From contig JBJOMY010000001.1 in the NCBI GenBank assembly GCA_046052125.1, positions 640,001-704,000 on the forward strand: DNA of 64,000 nucleotides, in the 5' to 3' direction. Origin of the DNA: Cyanobacteriota bacterium. GTDB lineage: Bacteria; Cyanobacteriota; Cyanobacteriia; PCC-6307; Cyanobiaceae. The notes beneath the pieces are model-generated. The model ran no database searches and was not told the origin of the DNA. It was given only the letters and a program-made list of their open reading frames with translations. Position 1 is the first letter of the stretch. Every line of letters starts with the position of its first letter. Of the stretch, positions 21,215 through 51,772 are shown piece after piece. The translations under genes were made by a program, and so were the position numbers.

Positions 21215-21817
21215 ATGGCTTCCCCCGCCACCTCCCTCAGCCGCTCGGCCCTCAAGGCCCGTGATGCCCTGGTGCTGGAGCACCTGCCCCTGGCTGATGC
21301 CATTGCCTCTGCCACCGCCCGGCGCCTGTCCCCGCTGGTGGAGCGGGAAGATCTGATCCAGGTGGCCCGAGAAGCCCTGGTCCGTTCCGCTCCCCGCTGC
21401 AGAGCCGGTGAGCCGGCAGCGCCTTATCTGCGCCGCTGCATCAGCGGGGCGCTGCAGCACCACCTGCGCGATCGGGTGCGGCTGGTGCGCGTGCCACGCC
21501 GTCTGCATGAGCAGGGGCAATGCCCGCTGCGGCACCTCAGCCTCGATGCCAGCACTGATGGCGAGCCCTGCCTGCTCGATCAGCTGGCTGCTCCGGAGGC
21601 CGAGCCGGCCATGAGCGAGGCCATCAATGGCCTGGCGCTGGAGCAGCTGGTGGATCAGCTGCCCGCCGCCCAGGCCACAGCCCTGAAGCTCACCGTCCTG
21701 GAAGGCCTGTCGCTGCGGGCTGCGGCGGAGCGGCTGGAGATCAGCGCCATGTCTGTGATGCGGGCCCAGAAGAAGGCCATCGCGGCTCTGCGCCAGCAGC
21801 TCTCTGGTGGGGGCTGA
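21215..21817 (+). CDS. Sigma-70 family (SigF/SigB-like) sigma factor with region 2 and region 4, region 3 largely missing
   Basis: LVLEHLPLA...EDLIQVA...HHLRDRVRLVRVPR (region 2), SLDA, and LSLRAAAERLEISAMSVMRAQKKA (region 4 HTH). Start taken at ATG 21215. Confidence 0.8.
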   Translation: MASPATSLSRSALKARDALVLEHLPLADAIASATARRLSPLVEREDLIQVAREALVRSAPRCRAGEPAAPYLRRCISGALQHHLRDRVRLVRVPRRLHEQGQCPLRHLSLDASTDGEPCLLDQLAAPEAEPAMSEAINGLALEQLVDQLPAAQATALKLTVLEGLSLRAAAERLEISAMSVMRAQKKAIAALRQQLSGGG

Positions 21818-21828
21818 GGCCCCTCCAC

Positions 21829-22023
21829 TCAGGCCTGCTCGAACACCAGCGTGGAGAGCGGCCACCAGCCGCTACCGCCTTCGTCGTAGGAGAGCTCCAC
21901 CAGCGAATCGGTGTCGCTGATTGCGGCTGCCAGGTTCAGCACAGTGGCGCCGGTCGTCGGGCTGATCCGATCGCGCCAGCAGCGCGCTCCAACCTCTGGC
22001 TGTGGTGCGGGCGTCATGGTCAT
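21829..22023 (-). CDS. Small hypothetical protein
   Basis: 64-aa ORF tightly coupled to the upstream minus-strand operon. Confidence 0.55.
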   Translation of the reverse strand: MTMTPAPQPEVGARCWRDRISPTTGATVLNLAAAISDTDSLVELSYDEGGSGWWPLSTLVFEQA

Positions 22024-22026
22024 GGA

Positions 22027-23073
22027 TCAGGGGCTCACCATCACCCGGTTGCCAGTGCCGCTGTTGCTCACTCCTGCGAACTGACGGCGCTGGGGTGACC
22101 AGCAGATCGATCGCCAGCCGGTACTGGCTGGGGTGCTGCGCAACGTCCAGGTGAGGCCATCGGGGCTGGTCATGATCCGGTTGCCGCTGCCGCTGGTGGC
22201 CACGGCCACAAGCAGCTCACGCTGTGGTGCCCAGCAGAGGGAATTCCAGGAGATATCAGCTGCCGATGTCCGGCTCGTCCAGGTGATGCCATCGGGGGAG
22301 GTCATCACCCGGTTGCCCGTGCCGCTGCTGCTCAACGCCACCAGCAGGCCGAGCTCCGCTGCCCAGCAGACCGACACCCAGTTGTTGCCAGTGGCCGCGG
22401 TCCGCAGGGTCCAGTTGCGGCCATCCCTTGAGGTCATCACCCGCTGGGTGCCGCCGGTGCTGCCCACGGCCACGAACAACCCCAGCTGCGGGGCCCAGCA
22501 CACCGACCGCCAGACCTGATCAACAGCAGCAGGGCCGACCGTCCACTGGATGCCATCGCTGCTGGTCATCACCCGGTTGCCCGTGCCGCTGCCCGCCACA
22601 GCCACCAGTAAACCCAGCTCGGGCGACCAGCAGATCGAGGTCCAGCTGTTGTCAACCGGCGTCTGCCGCAGGGTCCAGCTGCGGCCATCCGCGGAGGTCA
22701 TCACCCTGCTGCCGGTGCCGCTGTTGCTGACGGCCACGAACAGCCCCAGCTCGGCCGCCCAGCAGAGCGCCACCCAGTTCTGATCAGCCGCTGCCTGAGG
22801 GGTCCAGCGGATGCCATCGCTGGACGTCATCACCCGGTTGCCGCTGCCGGTACCGGCCGCAGCCACGTAAAGCCGCAGCTCGGGCGACCAGCACACCGCC
22901 TCCCAGCTGTTGTCCGCCGCCGAGCGAACGGTCGACCACTGGATTCCGCTGATCCCCAGCACCGGCGGCGTGCCCAGCTGCTCCGCCAGCGCCGCAGCAG
23001 GCAGCTGATAGGTGCCCGCCTCAGGGCCCACAGGGCGGGTGATCGCCAGCAGGTCGCTTGGTTGGAGTGTCAT
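22027..23073 (-). CDS. Seven-repeat BNR/Asp-box beta-propeller protein (candidate virion receptor-binding protein)
   Basis: Seven repeats of about 43-44 aa, WxxxCW(S/A)xxxxLxVA...GxxRVMTSxDGxxWT; the last repeat is partial. Confidence 0.8.
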   Translation of the reverse strand: MTLQPSDLLAITRPVGPEAGTYQLPAAALAEQLGTPPVLGISGIQWSTVRSAADNSWEAVCWSPELRLYVAAAGTGSGNRVMTSSDGIRWTPQAAADQNWVALCWAAELGLFVAVSNSGTGSRVMTSADGRSWTLRQTPVDNSWTSICWSPELGLLVAVAGSGTGNRVMTSSDGIQWTVGPAAVDQVWRSVCWAPQLGLFVAVGSTGGTQRVMTSRDGRNWTLRTAATGNNWVSVCWAAELGLLVALSSSGTGNRVMTSPDGITWTSRTSAADISWNSLCWAPQRELLVAVATSGSGNRIMTSPDGLTWTLRSTPASTGWRSICWSPQRRQFAGVSNSGTGNRVMVSP

Positions 23074-23750
23074 CAGGGCAAGGCCGGCAGGCTGCTGATG
23101 TCCAGCGGCATGTAGTCGCCGGCCGGCTGGGCGGTGGCCATTGCCGCTTTGAGGGCGGCGGCATCCACAGCTGCGCCCTCAGTGCCGGCGGTGAGGTCCT
23201 CCCCGCTGGCCAGCCGCAACACGCCGGCGCTCTCGGTGGTGGCCGCATCAACGCTGAGCAGCGGCTGGGCCGGATCGCTCTCATCCACGCTCAGCGGTGC
23301 CGCCACCTGGATACGGATCACACCGGCGCCATCAGGGCCCAGGGCGGCGTTGGCACTCCAGTTGTTGCCGTCAAACAGCAGCAGATCCCCCTGGGCGATC
23401 GGCTGGCCAGCGATACCGCTCCAGCTGGCCAGGGCCACACCGGAGGCACTGGCCAGGTAGACATCGCCCACGGCGGCATCGGCCGGGGGCTCGGCGGTGG
23501 TGGGATCGATGGCGCCGCGGTAGTGCAGGGCTCCGGGGATCGCGGCATGCAGCGTGCCGTCTGCGTCCACCGAGAGATTGGTGCCGGGCCGGATCGCACC
23601 GATCGCCGCCGCCGTGGCGGGAGAGAGCATGTAGGCCTTGACCTCCTCGGCCGTCGCCCGGTAGGGGGTGCTGCCGCGCTGCACCAGCAGCAGGTCGGTG
23701 GGTTGGGGCAGGGAGCGGCCGGCAATGCGGCTCTCGGTGCTGGTGGCCAT
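23073..23750 (-). CDS. Phage fibre-like structural protein
   Basis: DLLLVQRG..Y, GAIRPGTNLSVDADGTL, GALHYRG and GDLLLFDGNNW resemble head/tail fibre segments; lies in the capsid operon. Confidence 0.5.
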   Translation of the reverse strand: MATSTESRIAGRSLPQPTDLLLVQRGSTPYRATAEEVKAYMLSPATAAAIGAIRPGTNLSVDADGTLHAAIPGALHYRGAIDPTTAEPPADAAVGDVYLASASGVALASWSGIAGQPIAQGDLLLFDGNNWSANAALGPDGAGVIRIQVAAPLSVDESDPAQPLLSVDAATTESAGVLRLASGEDLTAGTEGAAVDAAALKAAMATAQPAGDYMPLDISSLPALP

Positions 23751-23788: not shown

Positions 23789-24031
23789 TCAGGGCGGCAG
23801 GAGGCTGAGCAGGCGCAGATCCAGCCCGATCACCACCACCCCATCGCTGGCAGCAGCACTCACCAGCGGCGCCAGGGTCTCCACTGCCGTGATGCCACCC
23901 GTGGGCGGTGGTTCAGGGGTGCCGCCGTCCTGCAGTTGGGCCTGGCCCAGGAAGATCACTCCCTGCGGTCGGGTGTTGCTGCGGCACTGCGCCGTCAGTT
24001 CGGCCAGCACAGCCGGATCGGGAGTGGCCAT
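23789..24031 (-). CDS. Hypothetical structural-module protein
   Basis: 80-aa ORF; its C-terminus (APLVS...LDLRLLSLLP) resembles the C-terminal region of the next gene (APLSV...LDISSLPALP). Confidence 0.55.
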   Translation of the reverse strand: MATPDPAVLAELTAQCRSNTRPQGVIFLGQAQLQDGGTPEPPPTGGITAVETLAPLVSAAASDGVVVIGLDLRLLSLLPP

Positions 24032-24111: not shown

Positions 24112-24846
24112 TCAGAGCAGGGCATCCCCCAGCTCCTGGGCCGCGAGATCCGCCGCATCGCTGCTGCCCTCGCTGCCACTGGCCTGGGCTTCCAGCGCCA
24201 TGGCCTGCTCCACCAGTTCCGCCTTGGTCTGGCTGCCATCGAGTTCCACCCCATAGACGCTGGAGCAGAACTCCACAATCTGGGCCTTGGTCATCGCCTG
24301 GAAGTCGGTGGGCTCAGAGGCCAGCAGGGCCTCCCCGGCAGCACTGCTGGTGTCAGTCGGCTCGCCGGTGGGCGTGGACGTGGACTCAGCGGTTGGAGAT
24401 TCGGGCTCCGTTGCCTCCGGCAGCTCCGGCTCGCTGACCAGCAGATCCAGAGGCGCACGCTGAGGCTCCAACGGCTCTGTCACCGGCTGCTCCTGCTCGG
24501 GCGGCTCTGGCTCGTCCTCGCTGCCATCAAGAGGGGGCGGGTCATCGCTGCCGCTGGTTGAGCTGAGCAGCTCCCAGCCCAGGGCCTGCCAGCCGGCCAG
24601 GTGCACCGGCCAGATCGAGCGGGTCACACCGTCCTTGCCGATCAGCAGCTGACTGGGCGGCAGCAGCGAGGCATCGCCCACCCCTGGATCGGGGGTGACG
24701 GTGAGACGCTGCTCCGGGCCGGAGAGACGCACGGGTGTCGAGACGGGGTTGCTGCTGTCGAGGGGCTGCAGCAGCTCCAGCGGCAGGGCCTCAGCTCCTG
24801 CTGCTGCTGTGGTGAGGGTGTCGAGGGTGTTGTCCATGGCGCTCAC
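24112..24846 (-). CDS. Acidic protein with C-terminal HeH/Rho-N-like motif
   Basis: MTKAQIVEFC...GVELDGSQTKAELVEQ motif, common downstream of phage capsid genes; Pro/Glu-rich linker. Confidence 0.6.
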   Translation of the reverse strand: MSAMDNTLDTLTTAAAGAEALPLELLQPLDSSNPVSTPVRLSGPEQRLTVTPDPGVGDASLLPPSQLLIGKDGVTRSIWPVHLAGWQALGWELLSSTSGSDDPPPLDGSEDEPEPPEQEQPVTEPLEPQRAPLDLLVSEPELPEATEPESPTAESTSTPTGEPTDTSSAAGEALLASEPTDFQAMTKAQIVEFCSSVYGVELDGSQTKAELVEQAMALEAQASGSEGSSDAADLAAQELGDALL

Positions 24847-24847: not shown

Positions 24848-25282
24848 TCACAGCCCCTGGTTGGCGGTCAGCGCCACGGTCATCCCCACCGGCGTGGCCG
24901 GCGACACCGCTGCCCGCGCCAGCCGCAGGCAGGGCGGTGTGATCAGCTCGCTGTCGGCTGGATTGATCAGCAGGGCAGCACCGCTGATGATCGCCTCCAC
25001 CTTGCCGCCAGCAGCGGGGATGGCGACGGCGGCGGCGGTGATCCAGCTGCCGGCGTTGCCGTCCGCCAGCAGGGGTGCCAGCTCCAGGGTCACGGTCACC
25101 GCTTCGCTGTGGCCGGGGTGGGAGGCCACCAGCACAAAAGAGGAGCAGGCATCGAGGTCAGTACCGAGGTTCACGACATCGCCGCTGCTGCGCACGTGCT
25201 CGTAGCAGTCAGTCGCGGAGTGGTTGATCCAGCCGACGAGCACCGTCTGGGCGTCGAGCAGCCGGGTGGCTTGAGAAGTCAT
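24848..25282 (-). CDS. Putative capsid decoration/cement protein
   Basis: 144-aa beta-rich ORF immediately downstream of the capsid gene; call is by position only. Confidence 0.45.
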   Translation of the reverse strand: MTSQATRLLDAQTVLVGWINHSATDCYEHVRSSGDVVNLGTDLDACSSFVLVASHPGHSEAVTVTLELAPLLADGNAGSWITAAAVAIPAAGGKVEAIISGAALLINPADSELITPPCLRLARAAVSPATPVGMTVALTANQGL

Positions 25283-25344: not shown

Positions 25345-26256
25345 TCAGACCACCAGCGGCATGGGCGCCACGTTGTAGAGACGGGCAGCGGCTTTGCGGT
25401 TGCAGACGGCAAAGCCCACGTACCAATCCACCCGCGTGCGGAACACCGGCGCGTCATGCACCTCCCCGAAGTCCCGCACCGAGATGCCGTAGCGGCCCTC
25501 GAACGGGCCCTGCAGTCCGCACACCGCCGCGTCACCCAGGACGCAGCAGTAGATGGAGGTGGTGTCGCCCGGTTCGTCGTAGCCGAGTACCGCGTTGCCC
25601 TCGGCGTCCTCCTCCACCAGCAGGATCTCCACCCCCTCGAAGTAGTGCCGCCCGTCGATGACTTCGTAGAGGTCACCGCCGGCCTGGCGGGAGGCGGTGC
25701 TGATCTGGCGGCGGGCAGCCTTGCTGGCGATCAGCACCTTGTCGCCGCCGTAGCCGATCACGCTGTCGGTCAGCGCCTCCAGCGCCAGCAGGTTGAGGGT
25801 GCTGCCGCCGTTGTCGACCGTCTGGTCGTCGCCTGGCACCAGCCGCTTGCTCAGACCGTTGAAGGCCCGCGGATCAAAGGTGTCGTCGCCGTTGATGATT
25901 GCCGCCTCCAGGGTGAGGCGCATCGAGCGCACCTTCATCTCGGTCTGGGCAGCACGGGCCTCAGGACCCTGCAGGTCGACGATCGAACGGTCCACATCCA
26001 GATCGCCGCCGAAGAGGTGCACGAACTCCGAATCGGAGTTGATTACCCCATAGCTCTGGCGGTAGCCCTCGTTCACGGCCCGGAAGCCGACGCGGGGGAG
26101 TTTGGTTTCAGCCGGGAAGCTCAGCGAGCCGCCCACGAGGTTGCGGAACGGCAGGCGGCGCAGCAGCTCCCCCTCCGCAAAGGTCTTGAGCACCGCCAGC
26201 TGTTCAGCACGGCGGGCGTATTTCTGCGCCTCGATCAAGGTCAGGCCCAAGGGCAC
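25345..26256 (-). CDS. Major capsid protein (HK97-like fold inferred)
   Basis: GLTLIEAQK, LPRVGFRAVNEGY, GGDLDVDR, IINGD...FNGL, RTRVDWYVG...AAARL are typical of this capsid family. Start taken at GTG 26256. Confidence 0.85.
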   Translation of the reverse strand: MPLGLTLIEAQKYARRAEQLAVLKTFAEGELLRRLPFRNLVGGSLSFPAETKLPRVGFRAVNEGYRQSYGVINSDSEFVHLFGGDLDVDRSIVDLQGPEARAAQTEMKVRSMRLTLEAAIINGDDTFDPRAFNGLSKRLVPGDDQTVDNGGSTLNLLALEALTDSVIGYGGDKVLIASKAARRQISTASRQAGGDLYEVIDGRHYFEGVEILLVEEDAEGNAVLGYDEPGDTTSIYCCVLGDAAVCGLQGPFEGRYGISVRDFGEVHDAPVFRTRVDWYVGFAVCNRKAAARLYNVAPMPLVV

Positions 26257-26455
26257 GCTCCCGGGGCCTCGCCCCAGTGACAACAGCTCCTGTTGCCAGG
26301 TCCGAGCCGGAGTGTCAGAGAACGGTCAGCTCAGGGGGGCGGGTGGTGGCTGGCGGCTGGAGGGCAGGCGCTCCGCATGGTGCCCCGCATCTGCTCGTCC
26401 TGAAGGCCGACGCCGATGGGGGGCGCGGTGGTCGCGTCCTGCCTGCAACACCGCC

Positions 26456-27658: not shown

Positions 27659-28288
27659 ATGGTAACGGCTCCGCAAATTTCTGATTTCATCGCCCTGGTA
27701 GCGCCAGGCTTTGTTGCCGTAGAGGTATTCAGGTCGGCCTACCCAGCCAAGACAAGATCCGACAAGTCTAATCTTTATCTGTACGTTGTATATAGTCTCA
27801 TTTGCGCAACCATTCTTTCGCTGCTCTCGCACCATTCTTCGATATCATCTTTTAGCCTTCAAGTTCCCGCAAAAGGCTCATCATTCTATCCATTTCTCCT
27901 GCTAGCAGTTGGGTGGCTTGTAGGCCAGGCCTGCATATTCTGCTACTGGATCCGACATCTTATTCCTCGCAAGTGCGACTCCCTAAGGTGGCTTCGTCCC
28001 GATCCTCAGAGTACCTGGAATAGAATCAATGACGACTTGGACGATCAGTGGGTATATGTTTTTCTTAAAGATGGATCGATCTATGTGGGACAAATCCGTT
28101 TCTGGAACTTTGACCCTGATTCCCCGAATCAGGATTTTTTTCTGGATAGAGCAAGAAGAGTAGATGAACGCCTAGACCCTAGGGGGCAAAAGTCGGCGAA
28201 GTGGAAGGAAAGATACTTGGTTGAAACTGGAGTCTATATCAGCACTGCCGAAGTATCGCGAATTGAGTTTCAAGGCTCGTACGTATAA
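27659..28288 (+). CDS. Membrane protein, DUF6338-like
   Basis: LVAPGFVA N-terminus, three hydrophobic segments, then STW...WVYVFLKDGSIYVG...DFFL...GVYI...IEF. Confidence 0.65.
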   Translation: MVTAPQISDFIALVAPGFVAVEVFRSAYPAKTRSDKSNLYLYVVYSLICATILSLLSHHSSISSFSLQVPAKGSSFYPFLLLAVGWLVGQACIFCYWIRHLIPRKCDSLRWLRPDPQSTWNRINDDLDDQWVYVFLKDGSIYVGQIRFWNFDPDSPNQDFFLDRARRVDERLDPRGQKSAKWKERYLVETGVYISTAEVSRIEFQGSYV

Positions 28289-28420
28289 TTTTTATGCATT
28301 AATGCGTAATCCGGCACGGCCATTCGCCTGGCCCGCCGCAGGCAGAGTCGCCACCCCATCGTGGCACTTTGATTTAAGCTTCTTCCAGATAGGCAATAGC
28401 CAGCATTGTATGGAGCAGCC

Positions 28421-28960
28421 ATGAAAGAGTTGCGTGAATGGATCCAGCTTGCCTTTGCTGTGATCGGCGGGGGTTTAGCCTCCGCAGCTTTTCTCCAAAA
28501 TCAGCGCCAGCGTCGCGTCGAAAACGCCCTTAAGTTCGTTGCCCTCTTCAAAGAAAGCCTTCGGGAAGGTGATATAGGGCACTGGGTGGAACTATTTCAG
28601 GCCGCAAGTGAACCTGCGGGTTGCCCCCCTGGTCATTTCAGAACGAGCAGGAACTCATGCATTTCCATAGTAGAATACTTCTCGGAAGGGAGCGGAGATG
28701 ATTATGCAATCTCGCGCATGGCGAATAGCCTAGATGCCGTGTGTTATCAGGTAGTTACAGGAGCCGCAGATGCACAAACTGTCTATCATGAAATTGGGCA
28801 ACTGCTCTGGCACATGAATCTCTGGCTTCGCGCGGTACCCGCTCCTGCAGGGAAACTCTCATTTCTTGAACAGTCATTCCCTAACATTGCACGGTTCTTT
28901 TCTAAGTTCGGGAGAGCAGCGCAAACCTGGCCTTCCAGAACATTTGCTTATATTGAATGA
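28421..28960 (+). CDS. Hypothetical protein with N-terminal transmembrane helix
   Basis: WIQLAFAVIGGGLASAAFL TM segment followed by a helical domain; lower GC than the flanks. Confidence 0.65.
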   Translation: MKELREWIQLAFAVIGGGLASAAFLQNQRQRRVENALKFVALFKESLREGDIGHWVELFQAASEPAGCPPGHFRTSRNSCISIVEYFSEGSGDDYAISRMANSLDAVCYQVVTGAADAQTVYHEIGQLLWHMNLWLRAVPAPAGKLSFLEQSFPNIARFFSKFGRAAQTWPSRTFAYIE

Positions 28961-30810: not shown

Positions 30811-31077
30811 ATGCAAGCCCAGACAGAGCCCCGGCCGCCCAAGCCGCCGTTCGACCGTGAGCGGTTCGTCTTCAAGACCCTGGCGGTGGTGATCGGCACC
30901 CAGCTGCTGATCTATTCCCTGGCCGCCGGGGTCTGCGGCCAGCGAGCAATGGAGGGCCGGCCGATCGGTCAAATCTGCCCGGGCACGCTGGAGCAGCTGC
31001 AGGGCGGCTTTGATTCCACCCTCAACCTTCTGCTGGCGCTGCTGGGCGGAGCAGCGCTGACGCGAATGGATCGGTAA
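30811..31077 (+). CDS. Small two-TM membrane protein (holin-like?)
   Basis: Two hydrophobic segments separated by a Cys-containing loop; follows two peptidoglycan enzymes. Confidence 0.5.
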   Translation: MQAQTEPRPPKPPFDRERFVFKTLAVVIGTQLLIYSLAAGVCGQRAMEGRPIGQICPGTLEQLQGGFDSTLNLLLALLGGAALTRMDR

Positions 31078-44214: not shown

Positions 44215-44407
44215 GCGTCAGCAACACCTGCAGAGAAAGAAGAAGCACCACCGCGAACCAGATCCAGTGCATTCGTATTCCCGAAAGCATAAGCACTGCA
44301 GCAAGAGTTGCTCGGCTTCGGCTGGGGGGCCGTTTGCGTTGCTGAGCGCTCTGGCCGTTCTGACCACCCAGGACGGTTGGCAGTTCCTGGTGGCCTCCCC
44401 AGGCCCG

Positions 44408-44699
44408 TCTAACGGCCTGAGCTGGTTCTAACAGCCTTCTAACAGCTGCTGTTAGACCTCAGATCCACTGCGCCGCAGCAGCTCTGGGGCGCTGTCCTCT
44501 TCTTTCTAACCTTCTAACAGAAAGAGAGAGATACACAGGAGAAGAGGGGGAGACAGGGGCTCTCTTCTGGATCAGGGGTGTGCGCTGGGGGATATGGAGA
44601 GAGAGCCCCTACCCCCTGTAGGAGCGTTAGACCGTTAGAAACCAGTCACCGCAAGGGGTGTCGCTCTAACAGCCCTGTTAGAGAGCGGCGCCTTCTAAC
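44408..44699. repeat. Iteron cluster (11 x TCTAAC/GTTAGA), putative replication origin
   Basis: TCTAAC at 44408, 44427, 44438, 44505, 44513, 44665, 44694; GTTAGA at 44451, 44626, 44634, 44677; at the 3' end of the primase gene. Confidence 0.8.
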
Positions 44700-47446
44700 G
44701 CTCCGGGGCCTGTGAGCATGGCCAGGGGCAGGGCCACGGCCCGCGAGCTGCCCAGGCCGCGGAAGTGCACCAGCAGAGAGCGGTTGGCACCGGGCAGGCG
44801 GCTGAGGATCGCCCCCCAGTTGGTCACCCAGGCGGTATCCGCCAGCATGCGGCCGATGGCTTCTGCGCTGTTGCTGATCAGCAGCTCCCCATCCCGCACC
44901 CGCAGGCCATGGCGGGCCAGCAGGTCGGCGGCATCGGCAGGCCGCACCGGCTCCATTGGTGAGGGCATGGCAGTTGACACCAGCTCCACCAGTTCCAGCA
45001 CCGTGCGGGTCACCGCCGAGCGCTCCTCGCTCTCCACCCGCAGCTGGTGCTGCAGGATCCGGTTGAGGCAGCGGCGCTCATCCGGGATCTCCGTGCTCTC
45101 GCGGTAGCTGCTCCAGTCCGCGCCATCGATCAGGCTCTGCACCTCCGCCGCGCTGGGCACCCGCGAGGCCTGCAGCGACCAGGCGCCGGCCAGCAGGGTT
45201 CCGTACTGGTCACCCAGGGCCTGCGAATCGAAGTGGGCCGCCGCCACTCGGGAGCAGACGGTGATCGAGCGGCGGATCACCGGGATCAGCGCCACGGTGC
45301 GGGCGATCAGCCGGTTGGCGAACGCCGGGGTAATCAGCTGCTCGAGGTCCCGGTCCAGCGCCTGCCAGTGGGCCTCCCGTTGCTGCTGGGGCAGCTCACT
45401 GGGATTGCGCAGGTTGAGCGGAGCAAAGCGGCGCCGGTCGGCGCCCTGCTTGAGCCCGGTGGCGATGGAGGAGAGCAGGAACATCGAGCGCACCGAGTAG
45501 CGCGCCACCTCCCCGCCAGGGGAGCCCTTCACGATCGCCGCGCGGGATTCGGAGCTCGCCACCCGGGCCAGCGCCAGGATCGCCTGGATGCGCTGCTGGT
45601 CCTCGCGCTCGTTGCTCTCGGCTTCATCGATCAGCACGGGCAGGGCATCGGAGCGCAGGGTTTGGCGGATGCCGGCTTCTGTGACGCTGCCCACAAATAC
45701 CCGGGCCATGTCGGCGAGCAGCACGCCACAGAAACGCTCAAAGAGGTGCGACTTGCCCGAGCCGGCCGGGCCGCTCAGCCAGAGGTGGGGCCGCCAGCGC
45801 AGGGCACCGCAGATCGGCGCCAGCGTCACCCAGCCAGCCAGGAGCATCGCCGAGGCCGGCACCTCCCAGTGGAAGCGGTCCGCCAGGGTGAGCACCAGCA
45901 GGGCTTCTTCATCAGAGAGCGGCTGGGCATCAGCTGTGCCCACCAGGGCCGCACCGCGCTGGTAGTGGAAGCGGCTGTTGAGGGTGGCGCTGATCGGCCG
46001 CGGCTCGCCGTCCACCACCAGGCGGTCGCCGAGATGGAGCACGCAACGGCCCTCGTCCCACCAGATGCCGCGGCCGCGCAGCAGGTCGGGATCGAACATG
46101 CCGATGGCGGCCTGACGGCAAAACAGATCGGAGGCCGCGGCCGTCCAGTTCACGCCCCGCTTGGAGGGGTAGAGGGTCTCCCAGTAGGCCAAGGGCGCCA
46201 GGCGGCAGAGGTTCACGCCGCCATGGGCAGACGAGCCCAGCCGCATCACCTGGCCGGTGGAGCGGGGTTGGTAGAAGTAGCCGTCGCTGTCGTAGCCCAG
46301 GCAGACGAACGGCTCGGCGCCTGAGGGAAGCGGACGCTCGGGCGGCTCCGGCGGCAGGTGATCGCCAGCACCGCCCTGTTTGTCAGGAGGCGGATCAACC
46401 GCCGGAGCTTGGGTGTCGGCGGCGGCATCGAGGACCGGATGCAGCACGGTTCTGCAGTGGCTCTCCAAGTAGGCCTGGGCTTCTGCAGGGCTCCAGCTGG
46501 CATCGGCCAGATCCCAACCGGCTGCGCCCGGCGCATCCACCAGGTCCCAGTCCTCCTCCGTACAGCTCGGTGGCAGCACCACCGCTACAGGGCAGCCCAG
46601 CTCCAGCAGCAGTGCCGCCAGCCGGGCCATCGCCTCGCGGCCGCTGCTGTCGGCATCGGGCCAGAGGGTGACGGCGCGGCCGGCCAGGGGGCTCCAGTCC
46701 ACGCTGGCGATGGCCTGGCTGCCGCCGCACCAGCTCACCACCACGTGATCGGGAAACAGCCCCACGGCGGCATCGGCCGCCTTCTCCCCCTCGGTGATCA
46801 GCACCGGCGCCCAGAAGTGGCGCTCCAGTTCTGCCAGCCGGTACAGGGGCCGGGGGGCCGGCCAGTCGGAGCGAAAGGGATCGCGGCGGGAGGGAAAGTG
46901 CCAGCCGCCATCCAGCCAGGTGCGCTGCACAAACACCTTGCGGCGCCGGCCGCCCTGCTCCAGTTCCAGCCGCTGCACCCAGAACAGCGGCGCTCCGGCC
47001 GCATCGGTGTAGCACCACTGGCCGCTGGCGCGGCCCAGCTCCGGCGGGGGAGCATCGACCGGCGGGGTGTCTGGGATGCGGGCAGGTCGGCCCGCCTTGC
47101 GGCCAGAGCGGCTGGGGCTGGCAGGGGCTGGACGATGCGGGCCTGGCTCCGCCGGCAGGCCCAGGTGGGCCTCAATGCGGCGGGCGGCGGTGGCGAAGTC
47201 CCACCCCGTCAGGCGCAGCAGCAGATCCATGCCGTTGCCGCCGCCACCACGGTGATCACGGCCGCCGCACTGGTTGCAGAACCAGCCACCCGGGCCGTCA
47301 TCACAGTCCCAGCGGTAGCGATCGGTGCCGCCGCAGGCGGGGCAGGGCTGATGGCGGTTCTCCAGCTGCTCCGGCGCCAGACCGGCGAGCTCGATCAGCA
47401 GCCGCGGCCACTGGCCCGCCGCGGCCGCCATCACGTCGGTGGCCAT
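44678..47446 (-). CDS. Primase-helicase (P4 alpha-type Zn ribbon, TOPRIM, P-loop helicase)
   Basis: HQPCPACGGTDRYR...CNQC; ITEGEKAADA...WPDAD; GPAGSGKS...LIDEAES. Confidence 0.85.
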   Translation of the reverse strand: MATDVMAAAAGQWPRLLIELAGLAPEQLENRHQPCPACGGTDRYRWDCDDGPGGWFCNQCGGRDHRGGGGNGMDLLLRLTGWDFATAARRIEAHLGLPAEPGPHRPAPASPSRSGRKAGRPARIPDTPPVDAPPPELGRASGQWCYTDAAGAPLFWVQRLELEQGGRRRKVFVQRTWLDGGWHFPSRRDPFRSDWPAPRPLYRLAELERHFWAPVLITEGEKAADAAVGLFPDHVVVSWCGGSQAIASVDWSPLAGRAVTLWPDADSSGREAMARLAALLLELGCPVAVVLPPSCTEEDWDLVDAPGAAGWDLADASWSPAEAQAYLESHCRTVLHPVLDAAADTQAPAVDPPPDKQGGAGDHLPPEPPERPLPSGAEPFVCLGYDSDGYFYQPRSTGQVMRLGSSAHGGVNLCRLAPLAYWETLYPSKRGVNWTAAASDLFCRQAAIGMFDPDLLRGRGIWWDEGRCVLHLGDRLVVDGEPRPISATLNSRFHYQRGAALVGTADAQPLSDEEALLVLTLADRFHWEVPASAMLLAGWVTLAPICGALRWRPHLWLSGPAGSGKSHLFERFCGVLLADMARVFVGSVTEAGIRQTLRSDALPVLIDEAESNEREDQQRIQAILALARVASSESRAAIVKGSPGGEVARYSVRSMFLLSSIATGLKQGADRRRFAPLNLRNPSELPQQQREAHWQALDRDLEQLITPAFANRLIARTVALIPVIRRSITVCSRVAAAHFDSQALGDQYGTLLAGAWSLQASRVPSAAEVQSLIDGADWSSYRESTEIPDERRCLNRILQHQLRVESEERSAVTRTVLELVELVSTAMPSPMEPVRPADAADLLARHGLRVRDGELLISNSAEAIGRMLADTAWVTNWGAILSRLPGANRSLLVHFRGLGSSRAVALPLAMLTGPGALEGAAL

Positions 47447-47631
47447 CAGCGCCGGGGGCTCTGGGCTCCAGCGGGCGGTGCAGGTTGCTGCGGGTTGAGC
47501 GGGCGCCCCTCACCCCGCATCACCTGCACCAGGGTCCGCCGCACAAAGGAGGCGCGGCTCTCGATGCCGGCGGCGTGGTCGTCAATCCAGGAGACGACAG
47601 CCTCCGGCAGCTGCAGCTGGATGCGCTTCAT
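47446..47631 (-). CDS. Ribbon-helix-helix (CopG-like) regulator
   Basis: MKRIQLQLPEAVVSWIDD...SRASFVR; coupled to the primase. Confidence 0.7.
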   Translation of the reverse strand: MKRIQLQLPEAVVSWIDDHAAGIESRASFVRRTLVQVMRGEGRPLNPQQPAPPAGAQSPRR

Positions 47632-47712
47632 GGTGACAGCACAATGCTTGCCCGAAAGCCTAGCCGCTGTTTTCGGGAGCCCTAAAATCTGTCACGGTGC
47701 TGCCGTGCCGCT

Positions 47713-49107
47713 GTGTCCTTCAGCCTGCGCCCCTACCAGCAGGACGCCGTTGCCCGCGTGCGGCAGGCGTTCATGGCTGGCCACCGCGCCGTGCTCTTTG
47801 TCCTGCCCACCGGTGGCGGCAAGACCGTGGTCTTCAGCCACATCGCCGAGCAGGCCTCCGCGCGCGGCAACCGCATCGCTGTGCTGGTGCACCGGGCTGA
47901 GCTGCTCGATCAGGCCTGTCGCTCCCTGGCTGCCATGGGAGTGCGCCATGGCGTGATCGCCGCCGGCCGCTCGATGAACCTGGCCGCACCGGTGCAGGTG
48001 GCCAGCGTCCAGACCCTCGCCCGGCGTCTGCATCAGCTGCCGGCCGATCTATTCCAGCTGCTGGTGGTGGATGAGGCGCACCACAGCAATGCAGGCACCT
48101 GGGCCAAGGTGATCGGCCACTTTGATCGAGCCCTGCTGCTGGGGGTCACGGCCACGCCGGTGCGGGGCGATGGCCGCGGCCTGGGGGAGTTCTATTCAGC
48201 CCTGGTGCTCGGCCCCAGCGCCGCCTGGCTGTGCGCCGAGGGTTACCTGGCGCCGGCGCGGGTGTTCGCCCCGCCGCTGGGGTTCTCGGTGAAGGGCCTG
48301 CGCCGGCGGATGGGGGACTTCGATCTCAACCAGGCGGCCGGTCAGCTGGGCGGCAGCCGGATCCTCGGCGATGCCGTCAGCCACTACCTCAGCCACCTGA
48401 GCGGCCGCACCGCCATCGCCTTCTGCTGCTCAATCGCCCATGCCCAGGCGGTGGCCCAGGCGTTTGTGGAGCGGGGTGTGGCCGCGGCCTCGATCGATGG
48501 CGCGATGGACACCCTGCAGCGGCGGCGGTTGCTGGAACAGCTCGGCAGTGGTGAGCTGCAGGTGCTCACCAGCTGCAACCTGATCGGCGAGGGGGTGGAT
48601 GTGCCCTCGGTGGGAGGCTGCCTGCTGCTACGGCCCACCCAGAGCCTGGCGCTGCACCTGCAGATGATCGGCCGCTGCCTGCGGCCCCAGCCCGGCAAGG
48701 AGGCGGTGATCCTCGATCACGTGGGCAACATCGAGCGCCTGGGCCACCACCTCGATGAGCAGGAGTGGAGCCTGGACGGGGTGCGCAGGCGCGAGCAGAG
48801 CAAGGCCCCCTCCGTGAAGACCTGCCCGGAGTGCTTCTGCGCCATGGCCAGCGCCGTCAGCACCTGCCCGGAATGCGGGCACCAGTTCCGGCCGGAGAAG
48901 CGCCAACTGGTCACGGTGGCCGGCGAACTGAAGGAACTGCACCAGCAGGAGCTGCGCCGCCAGCGCAAGCGGGAGCAGAGCCAGGCCCGCACCGCCGCGG
49001 AACTGGAGGCCCTGGGCGCCCAACGCGGCATGAAGAACCCGAAGGGCTGGGCGCGGCATGTGATCGCTAGCCGCCAGACGCGGGGGCAGTGGGGGCTGCT
49101 GGCATGA
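47713..49107 (+). CDS. SF2 DEAD/DEAH-box helicase with C-terminal Zn ribbon (phage type)
   Basis: LRPYQ, PTGGGKT, VDEAHH, TATP, EGVDVP, QMIGR, CPEC...CPECG. Confidence 0.9.
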   Translation: MSFSLRPYQQDAVARVRQAFMAGHRAVLFVLPTGGGKTVVFSHIAEQASARGNRIAVLVHRAELLDQACRSLAAMGVRHGVIAAGRSMNLAAPVQVASVQTLARRLHQLPADLFQLLVVDEAHHSNAGTWAKVIGHFDRALLLGVTATPVRGDGRGLGEFYSALVLGPSAAWLCAEGYLAPARVFAPPLGFSVKGLRRRMGDFDLNQAAGQLGGSRILGDAVSHYLSHLSGRTAIAFCCSIAHAQAVAQAFVERGVAAASIDGAMDTLQRRRLLEQLGSGELQVLTSCNLIGEGVDVPSVGGCLLLRPTQSLALHLQMIGRCLRPQPGKEAVILDHVGNIERLGHHLDEQEWSLDGVRRREQSKAPSVKTCPECFCAMASAVSTCPECGHQFRPEKRQLVTVAGELKELHQQELRRQRKREQSQARTAAELEALGAQRGMKNPKGWARHVIASRQTRGQWGLLA

Positions 49108-49463
49108 GCGAACAGGAACTGCAGCAGCGCATCCGGCTGGAGCTGGGCCGGGGCCCGGTGCGGTTGTGGCGCAACAACGTCGGCGCCCTGCGCGATGAAC
49201 GCGGCCGGCTGGTCACCTACGGACTGTGCAAGGGCAGCAGCGACCTGATCGGCCTCAGCCAGGTGCTGATTGGCCCGGAGCACCTCGGCCAGACCCTGGC
49301 GGTCTTCTCCGCCCTTGAGGTCAAGACCACCAAGGGCCGCATCAGGGAGGAGCAGGAGAAGTTCCTGCAGCTGGTGCAGCAGCTCGGCGGCCGCGGCGGC
49401 GTGGTGCGCTCAGTGGAAGAAGCCAGGCTCCTGCTCGGCGGCAGTAGCGGGATCTCCGCCTGA
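49104..49463 (+). CDS. VRR-NUC domain nuclease
   Basis: WRNNVG...GSSDLIG...ALEVK...EQ..F...GG.GGVVRS. Confidence 0.85.
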   Translation: MSEQELQQRIRLELGRGPVRLWRNNVGALRDERGRLVTYGLCKGSSDLIGLSQVLIGPEHLGQTLAVFSALEVKTTKGRIREEQEKFLQLVQQLGGRGGVVRSVEEARLLLGGSSGISA

Positions 49464-49709
49464 GGACGCACCGGCAGCACAGGGACGGGCAGCAGGGCGC
49501 TGGGCGTGGAGCACCCGGCGGCTGCGGCGCGCCAGGGCCTTCTCCACTTCAGGGACATTCCAGAGCAGGGTGGGCCGCTGCAGCCCAGCACCAGCGGCCC
49601 TGAAGTGATCGCCGGGACGCAGCACCCCATCACGGCGCAGCCGCAGCAGCGTGCGGTCACTGATCCGCAACGCCTTGCAGGCTTCCCGGGTGGAATGGGT
49701 GAACTCCAT
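49410..49709 (-). CDS. Excisionase-like HTH protein
   Basis: STREACKALRISDRTLLRLR...G.HF...LWN; next to the integrase. Confidence 0.65.
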   Translation of the reverse strand: MEFTHSTREACKALRISDRTLLRLRRDGVLRPGDHFRAAGAGLQRPTLLWNVPEVEKALARRSRRVLHAQRPAARPCAAGASSGGDPATAAEQEPGFFH

Positions 49710-50016
49710 TGCTCGTCATCAGGCGACTTGCCGGGACATTAACCGCAGAAAACTGCCATCAACTGCCCCATTCACGGGTATGTCGACATCTACCAATAGG
49801 TTCCCTTTCGGCAATCCTTAGAGATCAGAAGTTGAACCAAGTTCATCATTCTGGGAACCCAACCGGTAACCCACTGCGGCGCAAGCCAAGGGCCCGGAAC
49901 CCTGATGGGAACACGATCAACGGCTGAGCGGGATAACCCAAGGGGCAACAGACCGCAGGCATCAAGAGCGAGGCGGGGAGAGCATCGCCCTTGATGTCTG
50001 CGCAAGAGCCGACGCA

Positions 50017-51552
50017 TCAACCTCGTGCGCTGAGGGCCATCAGCTGCCGGGCGAGGTTGAGCAGCTCTGGGGTGACCTCCTCCGGCAGACCAGCAGCAGG
50101 CGCTGCAGGTGAAGCCAGCTCAGGCATCGGAATGGACGCGGCCGGCAGCGGTGCAGCAGGCGCAATCGCAGGAGCAGGGCGCTGGCCCTCATCGAGAGCC
50201 TTCTGCAAGGCCATCCCCCGCTCAATCTGCTGGGCGGTCTGCTCCACCAGGTAGCGGCGGGCGTGGATCACCTCGCTGTGGCCCATCGCCTGGGCCTTGA
50301 GCGCTGTCGACCAGGTGGTCGTCTCGCGGGCACGGATCGCCCAGGCATGGCGCAGGTCATAGGCCTTGCAGCGGCCCTGCACCGGCGGCGGCTGGGGCCG
50401 GCCCGGGAGGCTTCTGGGGTGATGCCAGCCGAGCAGCTTGACCTTGATCTCACCAGCGGGCTTGGTGGCATGCCGCAGCCAGTGCACCACCACCCGGCCC
50501 AGGGCGGCATTGTTCCAGAACTGGACGCTGCCGTCGCTGGCTTCCGCAGTGCGGATGGGGTAACGCCGGCGCAGCTCGGCCAGCATGGCCCTGGAGTGGA
50601 CCACGTCGTTGAGGCGGTAGCGCTCCAGCCACTCCTCCGGCAGCGGCAGCGCAAAGCGGTGGCCGGTCTTGGTGGCCTGCTCACCATGGCTTTCGAACAT
50701 GCTGATCTGCAGGAAGGTGGGCTCGACGCTGCTTTCGCCAGGCAGCCGCTCGATGTGCCACACCTCGTGGGCCCGCAGGCCGTAGCAGGCAATAACGGCC
50801 ATCACCCAACCCCGCAAGGGGTTTTCCTGCTGCACCTGATCCAGCCAGGCCTCCACCTCAGCCGTGGAGGGGATGAAGCGTGGGGCGGGCGTGCGGACCC
50901 TGCCGCTGGAGTTTTTGAGGCCCTCGAGCTTGGCGCGCAGCTCCGGCGTGGCGATGGAGACCCCCCGCTTGGCCAGGTAGTTCACCATCTGCACCACCCC
51001 GTGAAAGCTGCTGGTGTTGGTCTTGCGAGGCACCAGGGGCTGGGAGCGATCGCGGGCCTGCGCATCCAGCGACGCCGGGGTGTGCAGACAGAAGCGCTCC
51101 AGCTCTTCCGTGCGGGCGAAGGCCTCGTCAGGGAAGGTACGCCCGAAGTACCCCCGGTCGGTGAAGCAGGAGAAGGGGTTGCGGTCCTTGGCTTTGGGGC
51201 CACCCGGAGCAATGTCGGCTTTGATCAGCGATCTGATCTCTCCCCATGTCTGCAAGGGGCCGCAATCAGCAGGAGGTTGTTCACCCGGAGCCAGGTGCAG
51301 CCGCCGCCAGTCGAGCCCTGGCCCGCCGCGCAGCAAATTTCGCTGAGCCGCCAGCAGTAGCTCTACCAATTCGCCGAGATCACCATCCCGGTCGATCCGA
51401 TAGCCGCGGGCGGACTGGCTGCGACCACCTGCACGGGTTTCGTACACGTAGTAGTAGGGACTGTTCCGCCCTGGATGCAGCCGAATCCGATAAGGACAGG
51501 CAGCAAGGCGTAAGCGACAGGAGGCCTGCTGCAGAGCACTACGGGGCTGCAT
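50017..51552 (-). CDS. int: Tyrosine recombinase / integrase
   Basis: YGLRAHE, TKTG.R, YDLRHAWAIR, MGHS..IH..RY catalytic set. Confidence 0.88.
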   Translation of the reverse strand: MQPRSALQQASCRLRLAACPYRIRLHPGRNSPYYYVYETRAGGRSQSARGYRIDRDGDLGELVELLLAAQRNLLRGGPGLDWRRLHLAPGEQPPADCGPLQTWGEIRSLIKADIAPGGPKAKDRNPFSCFTDRGYFGRTFPDEAFARTEELERFCLHTPASLDAQARDRSQPLVPRKTNTSSFHGVVQMVNYLAKRGVSIATPELRAKLEGLKNSSGRVRTPAPRFIPSTAEVEAWLDQVQQENPLRGWVMAVIACYGLRAHEVWHIERLPGESSVEPTFLQISMFESHGEQATKTGHRFALPLPEEWLERYRLNDVVHSRAMLAELRRRYPIRTAEASDGSVQFWNNAALGRVVVHWLRHATKPAGEIKVKLLGWHHPRSLPGRPQPPPVQGRCKAYDLRHAWAIRARETTTWSTALKAQAMGHSEVIHARRYLVEQTAQQIERGMALQKALDEGQRPAPAIAPAAPLPAASIPMPELASPAAPAAGLPEEVTPELLNLARQLMALSARG

Positions 51553-51592
51553 CAGCGCCTCCCCGTCTCACGGAATGAGACGCGTGGGAGAT

Positions 51593-51610
51593 CTGTACCT
51601 AGGTACAGAA
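51593..51610. repeat. Perfect 18-bp palindrome upstream of the integrase
   Basis: TCTGTACCTAGGTACAGA equals its own reverse complement. Confidence 0.7.
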
Positions 51611-51727
51611 ATGGGTCAAAAGGGGTCCGAAGTGGTCGTCTCGTGTCCCGACCTGTCGGACGTTGGCGATTCATGAGATCCAGCTCCCTGAGAGGGAACT
51701 GGGGCCAAAAGTCGGCTGGGACTGGAA

Positions 51728-51772
51728 TGGGTCGCCTGAGATTCGAACTCAGGACCAATCGGTTAAAAGCCG
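51728..51772 (-). other. att core: 3' half of tRNA-Lys(UUU), not an intact tRNA
   Basis: Minus strand CGG-CTTTTAA-CCG ATTGGTC CTGAG-TTCGAAT-CTCAG GCGACCCA gives the anticodon arm, T arm and acceptor 3' strand; no D arm or 5' acceptor strand upstream. Confidence 0.85.

Follow-up and report, generated by a model that had tools for sequence, protein, structure and literature searches.

How could an island that encodes a phage head and the machinery to fill it, with no recognised tail, pass from one picocyanobacterium to another? The question is raised by a 64-kb stretch (C1:640001-704000, here called the window; positions given without a contig name are counted from its first base) of the genome of a member of the Cyanobiaceae, in which a capsid module occupies 21215-51772. 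The genome comprises 2.64 Mb in 10 contigs, with 64.7% GC and 99.96% completeness, and homologues of the window's proteins come from sources named, for example, Cyanobium sp. or Synechococcus sp., among which freshwater strains are frequent. The route by which picocyanobacteria exchange large genomic islands is an open question, and to our knowledge these bacteria are thought to hold almost no intact prophages. We called genes by their GC3 pattern, scanned 46 open reading frames (ORFs) of the window against Pfam and PHROGs, compared the 60 kb around 12 foreign copies of the major capsid protein (MCP) gene and around the second copy in the same genome (13 loci), and surveyed 401 genomes of the order from 37 genera. 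The analysis established the gene content and attachment (att) sites of the element, its conservation across a family, the purifying selection acting on it and a consistent lack of tail genes. To judge from its genes, the element is most likely a tail-less, capsid-forming, tRNA-integrating island descended from cyanosiphoviruses of the PSS2/S-CBS2 type, and the family to which it belongs offers a concrete, testable vehicle for island exchange.

Element boundaries

The original prediction had confined the element to 21215-51772 (30.6 kb). This extent had to be revised, as the att-to-att unit that holds the capsid module measures 72.3 kb and the predicted interval is its right arm only. ARAGORN found no tRNA within the window, and the sequence adjoining the integrase gene is the 3' part of a tRNA, from the anticodon loop to the 3' end. 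This proximal att copy (51726-51772, minus strand) corresponds to the 3' part of tRNA-Lys(UUU), and the same 46-bp piece occurs three times in contig C1, at 619346-619391, at 691726-691772 (the window copy) and at 738247-738292. The first of these is the distal att copy, 20.6 kb left of the window start, and the third lies inside an intact tRNA-Lys(UUU) gene, c[738248-738319], beside which stands a second, 36%-identical integrase. Two islands are inserted in tandem at tRNA-Lys, one of 72.3 kb with the capsid module and then one of 46.5 kb without capsid genes. A single base (C instead of T) distinguishes the middle att copy from the two outer ones, as would fit insertion in steps, with the capsid element arriving first and the capsid-less island later entering the rebuilt tRNA.

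The right end at 51772 is the exact end of the tRNA-Lys att repeat, whereas the left end at 21215 marks no more than the border of the conserved capsid module. The homology shared at the DNA level with nine of the 13 related loci breaks off sharply at 21050-21063, indicating a module boundary and not the end of an element. Past 51772, metagenome contigs of runs X3 and X20 lead directly on to the 5' part of tRNA-Lys, which indicates that elsewhere the element sits directly at an intact tRNA-Lys; integration at a tRNA, which had been predicted from the window alone, was thereby confirmed.

Several results say that the left arm (1-20714, delimited by Pfam, PADLOC and the att copies, and extending past the window start for 20.6 kb, as far as the distal att copy) is part of the same element as the capsid module. 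No third att copy lies between the two. The far end of a 75.4-kb island in genome G099, bounded by tRNA-Pro and a 53-bp repeat, reads HK-RR-L258-AcrB-L407-EamA-DUF1651-L94-Rad52-L95-Gam, in the same order as here and with 74-94% protein identity, and a 62.4-kb island at tRNA-Arg in G264 ends with Rad52-Gam-Fic adjoining its distal repeat. The second capsid copy of the present genome belongs to a 65.3-kb island at tRNA-Pro; for the element in G068, a 15-bp exact match was the only att candidate.

Head, packaging and neck genes

The capsid and packaging set consists of MCP, portal, scaffold and TerL, recognised by family, a neck pair recognised by hhalign, and TerS, recognised by position, all encoded on the minus strand. 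MCP belongs to the HK97-fold family (25345-26283; phrog_212, E 4.9e-54; Pfam GP7, E 2e-12) and is 41% identical to that of PSS2 and 40% to that of S-CBS2. The portal (35683-37323; DUF4055; phrog_145, E 4e-18) is 29% identical to the portals of both phages, and the head scaffolding protein (32962-33930; phrog_206, E 5e-11) is homologous to S-CBS2 gp036 and PSS2 gp091. TerL (42005-43903, with the true start probably near 43663; phrog_38, E 2.6e-75) is 37% identical to S-CBS2 TerL, within a range of 33-37% among the nearest cyanosiphoviruses. The ORF directly upstream of TerL and abutting it (43660-44214) is a putative TerS, assigned from position and conservation only (67-75% identical in seven loci); it has no family match in Pfam, PHROGs or NCBIfam, and its profile found no relative among the PSS2 and S-CBS2 ORFs. 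No prohead protease or HNH gene was recognised in the element.

When the element's proteins were compared with PSS2 and S-CBS2 by tblastn, only MCP, scaffold, portal, sigma factor 2, TerL and integrase matched. The cultured phages nearest in MCP and TerL are the cyanosiphoviruses PSS2, S-CBS2 and S-CRES, and the order terS-terL-sigma is common to the element and these siphoviruses. A podovirus-type prophage, suggested by GP7/SU10-type MCP matches, was dropped as a candidate, the phages nearest in MCP, TerL, portal, scaffold and neck being siphoviruses.

By profile, the two ORFs between portal and scaffold match siphovirus-type neck proteins, one adaptor-like and one connector-like. The first, h165 (35169-35666, 165 amino acids (aa)), aligned with S-CBS2 gp011, PSS2 gp061 and S-CRES3 gp75 at 93.2% in hhalign (E 3e-7, 80 columns), and hmmsearch returned S-CBS2 gp011 (E 3.5e-4) and PSS2 gp061 (E 1.1e-3) as its best matches among all ORFs of both phages. 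The second, LysM412 (33927-35165), combines a connector-like N-domain (about residues 1-220), recognised by profile comparison, with three LysM repeats (LysM, E 1.2e-18). Its N-domain aligned with S-CBS2 gp013, PSS2 gp062 and S-CRES3 gp77 at 82.8% (E 9e-6, 89 columns), and the best hmmsearch matches among the same ORFs were S-CBS2 gp013 (E 0.0078), annotated as a structural protein, and PSS2 gp062 (E 0.18); the protein atlas held no usable match for this domain. Six mismatched pairs used as hhalign controls all scored below 0.5%. PSS2 gp061 and gp062 are adjacent, and in S-CBS2 one small gene separates gp011 from gp013; in both phages the adaptor/connector pair has the same order as in the element and heads the module that runs through the major tail protein (MTP) and the tape measure. 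In clade C of the family (see below) the connector homologues have 188 aa and lack the LysM part.

The AlphaFold2 (AF2) model of h165, with a predicted local distance difference test (pLDDT) score of 67.6, gave 8keg_A as its top exhaustive structural match (Z 8.9, root-mean-square deviation 5.4 over 111 residues), the next match reaching Z 6.1; for helical proteins such a Z alone is not decisive. Entry 8keg shows the neck and gp5-neck fibre of cyanophage A-1(L), and its chain A is presumably gp5, which PMC10966104 describes as a helical ring on the portal that anchors the neck fibres. The protein atlas lead for h165 was a 'PhiTE adapter' cluster (0.89).

Directly after the MCP gene lies h144 (24848-25282, 144 aa), tentatively a capsid decoration or cement protein on account of this position and of jelly-roll matches that include cement chains. 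Its AF2 model (pLDDT 82.5) is a beta-jelly roll, and the fold matches are weak and non-specific: 9hz8_G (Z 6.6), the cement chain 7dou_4 (Z 6.0) and 9in6_c (Z 5.8), and also carbohydrate-binding modules and YomS (Z 7.0). Foldseek gave no match at E <= 0.001 in PDB or BFVD, none of 264 homologues bears a functional name, and the ratio of nonsynonymous to synonymous substitutions (dN/dS) is 0.08-0.30. Downstream of the scaffold gene lies a conserved 91-aa basic protein (h91; 32666-32941). Searches of PDB sequences with h144, h165 or the integrase, alone or as profiles, found nothing, as did Pfam at E <= 1 for h144, h165, h91, TerS and the small proteins h244, h80, h88 and h112 described below.

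Absence of detectable tail genes

Within the sensitivity of family and profile searches, no counterpart of the genes that follow the neck pair (those for tail tube, tape measure and tail tip) was found in the element, the 12 related loci or the genome. Pfam and PHROGs detected no tape measure, tube, sheath or baseplate family among the 46 window ORFs, and no podovirus adaptor, nozzle, needle or ejection-protein family either; neither the 20 kb to the left of the window nor the adjacent capsid-less island yielded a tail gene. Beyond primase and TerL, the only very long ORF encodes a low-GC, 966-aa Dsr1-like protein, and apart from identified enzymes and cargo the 72-kb island has no ORF of tape-measure length or character. 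No tail ORF of PSS2 or S-CBS2 matched anywhere in the genome by tblastn, the ORFs that did match being head, replication, lysozyme and nucleotide-metabolism genes only. Likewise, the families PF10145 (tape measure), PF04984 (sheath) and PF05709 (Dit) were absent from the genome and matched in control genomes.

In the survey, a three-phage MTP profile matched two of the 401 genomes (G344 and G140, not the present one), compared with 79 for MCP and 73 for the adaptor profile. A comparison of two tables by hand gave 65 genomes with both MCP and adaptor, one of which (G140) had an MTP-like match. The match in G344 serves as a positive control for the tail-tube search. In that genome, adaptor-like, MTP-like and S-CBS2 gp014-like genes lie within 3 kb (L094, G344:C72:4782-7789); its MCP is only 38% identical, and the locus may belong to a different phage or satellite type. 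The 12 foreign loci contain 181 gene-like ORFs with 350 aa or more, of which 137 had no query counterpart; 19 of these, from the core spans and some neighbours, were scanned and none was tail-related, the products being transposases, redox enzymes and DISARM-like, GmrSD and type I restriction genes. The original prediction had seen no ORF with the length or character of a tape measure, tail tube, sheath or baseplate, and had named podovirus-type adaptor, nozzle or ejection proteins and a tail operon routinely carried by homologous elements as findings that would speak against a tail-less element; the former were not found, and the latter contrasts with an MCP in 79 genomes and a siphovirus MTP profile match in two.

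Might the island be a complete temperate phage whose tail genes were missed, either as too divergent or as lying elsewhere in the genome like the split RcGTA loci? We regard this as highly unlikely. Room for such genes is left by many small conserved ORFs without an assigned function, with structures predicted for two proteins only, by the scanned share of the unlabelled long ORFs (19 of 137) and by the MTP-like ORF of G140, which lies near a sigma2-like gene. A missed tail would nonetheless have to do without a tape-measure-like ORF in the island and without any of the tail families or phage tail ORFs searched for in the genome, and would have to escape an MTP profile that works in G344.

Integration, replication and sigma factor genes

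Near the proximal att copy, a 511-aa protein (50017-51552, minus strand) is probably a divergent integrase of the tyrosine-recombinase type, an assignment resting on homology to the PSS2 integrase (28% identical, E 5e-17) and on conserved catalytic positions. Tyrosine recombinases share the catalytic set R-K-H-R-H/W-Y, and R260, K295, R401, H402, H425 and Y434 are invariant in an alignment of three sequences; Pfam, NCBIfam and PDB gave no match. An HTH_17/excisionase-like protein is encoded at 49410-49709 (minus strand), with matches below the curated cut-offs (HTH_17, E 4e-5, 24.2 bits against a cut-off of 27; TIGR01764, E 0.001).

The primase-helicase (44678-47446, minus strand) has Zn_Ribbon_Prim, Toprim and P-loop parts (phrog_35358, E 3.7e-130) and shares 55-56% identity with its clade C counterparts. 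A TTCTAAC/GTTAGAA repeat cluster (44426-44699), situated between this gene and that for TerS, contains all six exact TTCTAAC words of the 64-kb window (1.47 expected) and may be either an iteron-type origin or a packaging site. On the plus strand follow an SNF2/ResIII-type helicase (47713-49107; ResIII, E 1e-31; phrog_16, E 2e-103) and a VRR-NUC nuclease (49089-49463; VRR_NUC, E 2e-8). Two SigF-like sigma factors frame the head genes. Sigma factor 1 (21014-21817, plus strand, with the true start likely near 21212) matches Sigma70_r2/r4, phrog_351 and TIGR02937 (E 1.4e-19). Sigma factor 2 (41281-41988, minus strand; Sigma70_r2, E 1.5e-11; phrog_351) is homologous to PSS2 gp003 and lies directly downstream of TerL, as its counterparts do in PSS2, S-CBS2 and S-CRES3.

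Most of the genes named in the original prediction were thus recovered. MCP, scaffold, portal, TerL, primase-helicase, iterons and repeat protein stood, the element's own replication, packaging and head genes being recognised by family matches; the integrase (PSS2 homology), the excisionase (below cut-off) and TerS (position) are weaker calls. The claim that the element brings its own sigma factors and cell-wall enzymes agrees with family matches to two SigF-like factors, a YkuD-like enzyme, Phage_lysozyme2 and the three-LysM protein.

Distribution and selection

MCP homologues occurred in 79 of the 401 genomes and 16 of the 37 genera, with up to five matches per genome; genus g4 (113 genomes) had none. 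The copies fall into clades at about 97, 89, 73 and 63% identity, and copies from different genera can be 95-99% identical. The full set from TerS to sigma factor 1 was found in the same order, with 45-98% protein identity and open core ORFs, in seven of the 12 foreign loci and in the second copy of the present genome. In clade C, the genes for primase, SNF2 helicase and VRR-NUC are shared as well; other clade A copies have a different replication gene (AAA_25) and different integrases. For MCP, dN/dS was 0.014-0.057 at a synonymous divergence (dS) of 0.26-0.46 in 10 copies, one further copy being skipped for an indel, and 13 other core genes, unassigned ones included, gave 0.08-0.37. The core genes are evidently under purifying selection, which argues that the island is not a decaying prophage and that selection maintains the module. 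The 95-99% MCP identity across genera, with dS of about 0.3, points to horizontal spread and not to vertical domestication.

These results bear on two further explanations. Decay, with a PSS2-like siphovirus prophage left as a relic after loss of its tail module, would account for the confinement of PSS2/S-CBS2 homology by tblastn to six proteins, for insertion sequence (IS) elements inside some copies, for partial gene sets in five foreign loci and for CheckV completeness of 30-64% in related IMG/VR records; PMC2784084 calls an island of this kind a significantly degraded prophage. It is the least probable of the readings considered here, given the recurrence of the same tail-less set with open core ORFs and dN/dS of 0.014-0.37, the 65 genomes with MCP and adaptor against two with a tail-tube profile match, and the retention of neck genes exactly up to the head/tail boundary. 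The second explanation takes the capsids as domesticated and retained by the host in the manner of a gene transfer agent (GTA), with the island persisting mainly through its defence and efflux cargo. The large load of host-beneficial genes fits, as do the wide distribution, the several copies per genome and the failure to find tail genes. We nevertheless hold this very unlikely in view of the elements' own integrases for different tRNAs (Lys, Arg, Pro), their own replication modules, TerS, att sites and iteron/pac-like cluster, the horizontal spread seen in MCP and the swapping of replication and integration modules between copies; a GTA, by contrast, would package random host DNA and neither replicate nor transfer itself.

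The family is also present in the environment. Among the matches listed, DNA nearly identical to 42000-51900 appeared in 24 runs of 21 studies, from lake and freshwater metagenomes; six of the runs are on record as RNA, and two are possibly the source. Four runs were examined over 32001-52000; each has contigs of at least 90% identity over the genes for head, terminase, replication and integrase, and each shows no or trace cover of the low-GC cargo at 37337-41338 (six bins). The head genes are also covered by contigs from RNA libraries; as these data consist of contigs only, they do not reveal expression levels or where molecules end.

Possible modes of delivery

What the element has retained comprises integration, replication, packaging, two sigma factors, head, neck pair, fibres, a block of wall enzymes with a holin-like protein, and a recombination arm, and cargo (DISARM, GmrSD, Dsr1-like, RND efflux) stands where the tail module would be. 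The original prediction had left two options, piracy of tails or a minimal LysM/fibre/lysozyme apparatus. Exactly the two head-proximal neck genes are kept, and they are homologous to those of phages of the same hosts, which favours tail piracy, as the strategy of phage-inducible chromosomal islands that form capsids (cf-PICIs) predicts, over a minimal LysM/fibre apparatus. Going by gene content, we give cf-PICI-like piracy of tails from S-CBS2/PSS2-like helpers slightly better than an even chance. On induction, the element would excise between its tRNA-Lys repeats and replicate, and its own sigma factors would switch on the late genes. It would then build its own capsids and package its own DNA through its own terminase, the filled heads being closed by the adaptor/connector pair and joined to the tails of a co-infecting or resident S-CBS2/PSS2-like siphovirus. 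The resulting chimeric particle would deliver the island to a new host.

Alternatively, the element could be an autonomous tail-less or stub-tailed virus-like entity that docks by its own fibres and LysM connector and breaches the wall with virion-borne YkuD and lysozyme, with no need of a helper tail. The fibre-side genes, all on the minus strand, are relevant here. A 348-aa protein, probably a beta-propeller and putatively the distal fibre or receptor-binding protein (22027-23073), contains seven 44-aa repeats encoded by seven copies of a 132-nt repeat, with weak DUF6242/WD40-like matches and dN/dS of 0.22-0.33. Next to it, the fibre-like fib225 (23073-23750, 225 aa) is 73-85% conserved (dN/dS 0.22-0.34) and has sub-threshold family matches only (DUF2793, Phage_cement_2). 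These fibre genes are under purifying selection, and in clade C the propeller is replaced by collagen-like fibre proteins (phrog_819, E 2e-30), a swap to tail-fibre-family proteins as expected of receptor-binding modules. Three conserved small genes accompany them: h64 (21829-22023, 64 aa; 67-79% identical in six loci, dN/dS 0.32-0.37), h80 (23789-24031, 80 aa; conserved in related loci) and the acidic h244 (24112-24846, 244 aa; homologues in clades A, B and C, dN/dS 0.35-0.37). In h244 and its homologues (L085:10684-11121 and L076:10956-11477), a long acidic tail of low complexity, with D-x-L-L at its end, comes after a 'WPVHLxGWxxxGW' motif; in clade C a related motif opens the next gene.

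The cell-wall enzymes are encoded on the plus strand, in what may be a lysis block. A YkuD-like enzyme with the L,D-transpeptidase fold (29461-30195; Pfam E 1.7e-6; 71-92% conserved) is followed by a lysozyme-like Phage_lysozyme2 protein (30192-30791; Pfam E 7e-8), which is present in two of the 12 foreign loci and whose position is taken in clade C by a Peptidase_C39-like enzyme. The hydrophobic h88 (30811-31077, 88 aa), putatively holin-like from its sequence, adjoins wall enzymes in clades A, B and C, and the conserved h112 (31192-31530, 112 aa) also occurs in capsid-less islands of the same genome.

For autonomous docking speak, besides the selected and exchangeable fibres, the fusion of three LysM repeats to the neck connector, the possession of wall enzymes, holin-like gene, sigma factors and replication genes, and the resemblance of the adaptor, in its best structural match, to a neck ring that anchors neck fibres according to PMC10966104. 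On the other hand, the family can dispense with the LysM repeats, which the clade C connector lacks; the wall enzymes are encoded on the other strand, in a block that looks like one for lysis and includes a membrane protein; and no nozzle, needle or ejection-protein family was detected. On balance, autonomous docking appears unlikely. In its boldest form, in which the 62-75-kb islands would be a new class of capsid-borne integrative elements whose head-neck particle is infectious by itself without a tail, the idea is distinctly improbable. We know of no portal-containing HK97-type capsid that delivers DNA without a tail. If true, it would make these islands akin to conjugative islands with a phage head as the transfer machine, would amount to tail-less delivery by an HK97-type portal capsid, and would account for near-identical capsid modules and large defence and efflux cargo across many freshwater picocyanobacterial genera.

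Several points also weigh against a tail-pirating island. Piracy is read from genes alone, and a helper phage, a particle, an excision product and packaged DNA have not been observed. Lysis-type enzymes, fibres and sigma factors are superfluous for the known tail-pirating satellites and fit an autonomous entity equally. The neck homologies come from small profiles (4-7 and 3 sequences), and the h165 model, with its low pLDDT, has no Foldseek match in PDB. The proteins h244, h80, h64, fib225 and the propeller, to which no fold has been assigned, could form an unrecognised delivery device. In G140, a 165-aa MTP-like ORF (E 9.6e-7) stands directly after a sigma2-like gene (L095, G140:C45:7811-11209), possibly within a member of the family. 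In five of the 12 foreign loci the head set is incomplete over the 60 kb examined, and the five IMG/VR records examined are proviral or linear, none being complete and none giving a sign of a free or circular form. The 72 kb may, finally, be a composite of two islands and not one packaged unit, and some of the islands compared may be unresolved tandems.

Cargo genes

Defence cargo, as originally predicted, is borne out by DISARM, a GmrSD-type gene and a Dsr1-like gene. In the left arm, Pfam identified SNase/Excalibur and AbrB-like genes (26-944) and an AAA_33/WYL protein (958-3180). They are followed by a class 1 DISARM set in the order DrmD-DrmMI-(187 aa)-GmrSD/HEC-05-DrmA-DrmB-DrmC (4495-20714), complete in that all five Drm proteins matched in PADLOC (DrmD, E 2.6e-298; DrmMI, E 0; DrmA, E 2.7e-268; DrmB, E 1.1e-77; DrmC, E 4.6e-55). 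The GmrSD/HEC-05 gene and the 187-aa ORF are inserted between DrmMI and DrmA, in a low-GC stretch at 10-13 kb. Sets resembling DISARM were also seen next to sigma factor 1 in G186b, G018, G097 and G138a. Beyond the window, the left arm encodes Exo VIII, RecT, SSB, Fic, Gam and Rad52, together with a cluster of EamA, resistance-nodulation-division (RND) efflux and two-component genes.

Two low-GC inserts interrupt the capsid module, both on the plus strand. The first (27659-28960) encodes a DUF6338 protein, named by Pfam, and a 184-aa protein at a GC fraction of 0.49-0.52 compared with about 0.68, and has no counterpart in the 13 related loci. The same hot spot between MCP and lysis genes is occupied in other elements by an RND efflux cluster, by Fic or by IS elements. 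Cargo evidently moves between fixed hot spots, since G186a and G097 have the efflux cluster between MCP and YkuD, within the capsid module. The second insert (37618-41125, GC 0.45-0.48), putatively defence cargo, encodes a 210-aa protein without a match and the 966-aa protein, which resembles the C-terminal part of Dsr1 only (PADLOC E 7.7e-19) and lacks a SIR2 domain; neither has a homologue in the 13 loci. The second element of the same genome (contig C3) carries as cargo MazF/PemK-like and YhaV-like toxin genes and a ferredoxin/metallo-beta-lactamase-fold gene (L085:8664-9247 and 13521-13997).

Neighbouring islands

The 46.5-kb capsid-less island extends from window position 51773 through 64000 and on to C1:738247. 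Just right of the att copy, it carries a toxin-antitoxin-like pair of MNT/HepT type, a nucleotidyltransferase and an RNase (52274-52965; PADLOC PDC-S09), then an S-CBS2-like endolysin (53271-54506), AbrB-like and SNase genes, and a type III-like restriction system with DUF4391 (56829-63996). Further on lie Rad52, Gam, PSS2-like primase and DnaB genes, a gene for a 935-aa ATPase, three genes of sigma type and one for an exonuclease, besides an integrase gene of the island's own. The genome has two more islands of this capsid-less type, at C1 ~153-182k (tRNA-Met) and at C3 14.6-47.9k (tRNA-Pro).

The region is flanked by AbrB-like paralogues (578-944 and 54888-55251, 81% DNA identity), with SNase/Excalibur paralogues at 26-436 and 55716-56726; the genome has at least nine AbrB-like copies (78-92% protein identity), many adjoining islands. 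A first search for repeats within the window found only such paralogous genes, and they were rejected as att sites.

Relation to known elements

Capsid-forming, tail-less islands are known, and the element adds a very large form to them. The family occurs in roughly one in five of the related genomes searched, often with several copies in a genome. It is under strong selection and joins its machinery for capsid and packaging to 30-40 kb of cargo that can be exchanged, such as DISARM, restriction systems, efflux pumps and toxin-antitoxin pairs. If tail piracy is true, it extends cf-PICI-type parasitism to cyanobacteria with elements four to five times larger than any described, and islands dismissed as 'relic prophages' would have to be reinterpreted; lake viromes would be predicted to hold tail-less or chimeric particles with 60-75 kb of host-island DNA. 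A literature search, covering neither supplements nor subscription journals, found no account of a conserved capsid-forming, tail-less family in cyanobacteria and no paper pairing cf-PICIs with cyanobacteria.

As described in 10.1101/2022.09.08.507074, cf-PICIs such as EcCIEDL933 have their own capsid genes and TerS/TerL, no tail genes and a size of about 15 kb. The present element, compared by gene content, resembles them in its own replication gene, MCP, portal, head-tail connectors, TerL and putative TerS, in being tail-less, and in its low homology to real phages (28-41% identity for six proteins here); its probable integrase and tentative AlpA/HTH-type gene would add to the likeness, and it may likewise use a helper. 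It differs in size: cf-PICIs of about 15 kb make small capsids, whereas the element has 72.3 kb, in keeping with the prediction that it exceeds known satellites, and its relatives have 62.4-75.4 kb. Here a scaffold was recognised but not the HNH and prohead protease genes, and the element further carries enzymes of lysis type, fibres, its two sigma factors, a recombination arm and cargo amounting to tens of kilobases.

With the cyanosiphoviruses PSS2 (NC_013021), S-CBS2 (NC_015463) and S-CRES3 (OQ587941), the element shares MCP, scaffold, portal, TerL, the TerL-linked sigma factor, adaptor and connector, as well as the integrase in the case of PSS2; the S-CBS2 genome, at 72.3 kb, is like the island in size. 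These phages, however, carry a neck-to-tail module (major tail protein, tape measure, distal tail/fibre) that has no counterpart in the element, and replicate with DnaB and a primase in place of a P4-type primase-helicase.

Two picocyanobacterial precedents stand closest in their hosts. Prochlorococcus tycheposons, as described in 10.1101/2020.12.28.424599, are capsid-less, and the PICI-like ones among them, of 10-20 kb, have at most terS or MCP and never together with cargo. By this description they are like the present element in the tyrosine recombinase that targets tRNA genes (a probable one here), the partial tRNA repeats, the tandem stacking, the primase/helicase and the adaptive cargo; the element differs in combining a whole head and neck set with cargo in 72 kb. 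In Synechococcus RS9917, P-SS2-like genes in a tRNA-linked island were read as a relic prophage by Sullivan et al. 2009 (PMC2784084), and the PSS2 record notes a similarity of its MCP to an RS9917 gene. That island of a marine Synechococcus, likened here by description only, has P-SS2-like terminase, integrase, sigma and structural genes at a size of 42-65 kb; it was taken for a single degraded prophage, whereas the element described here belongs to a conserved, selected and widespread family.

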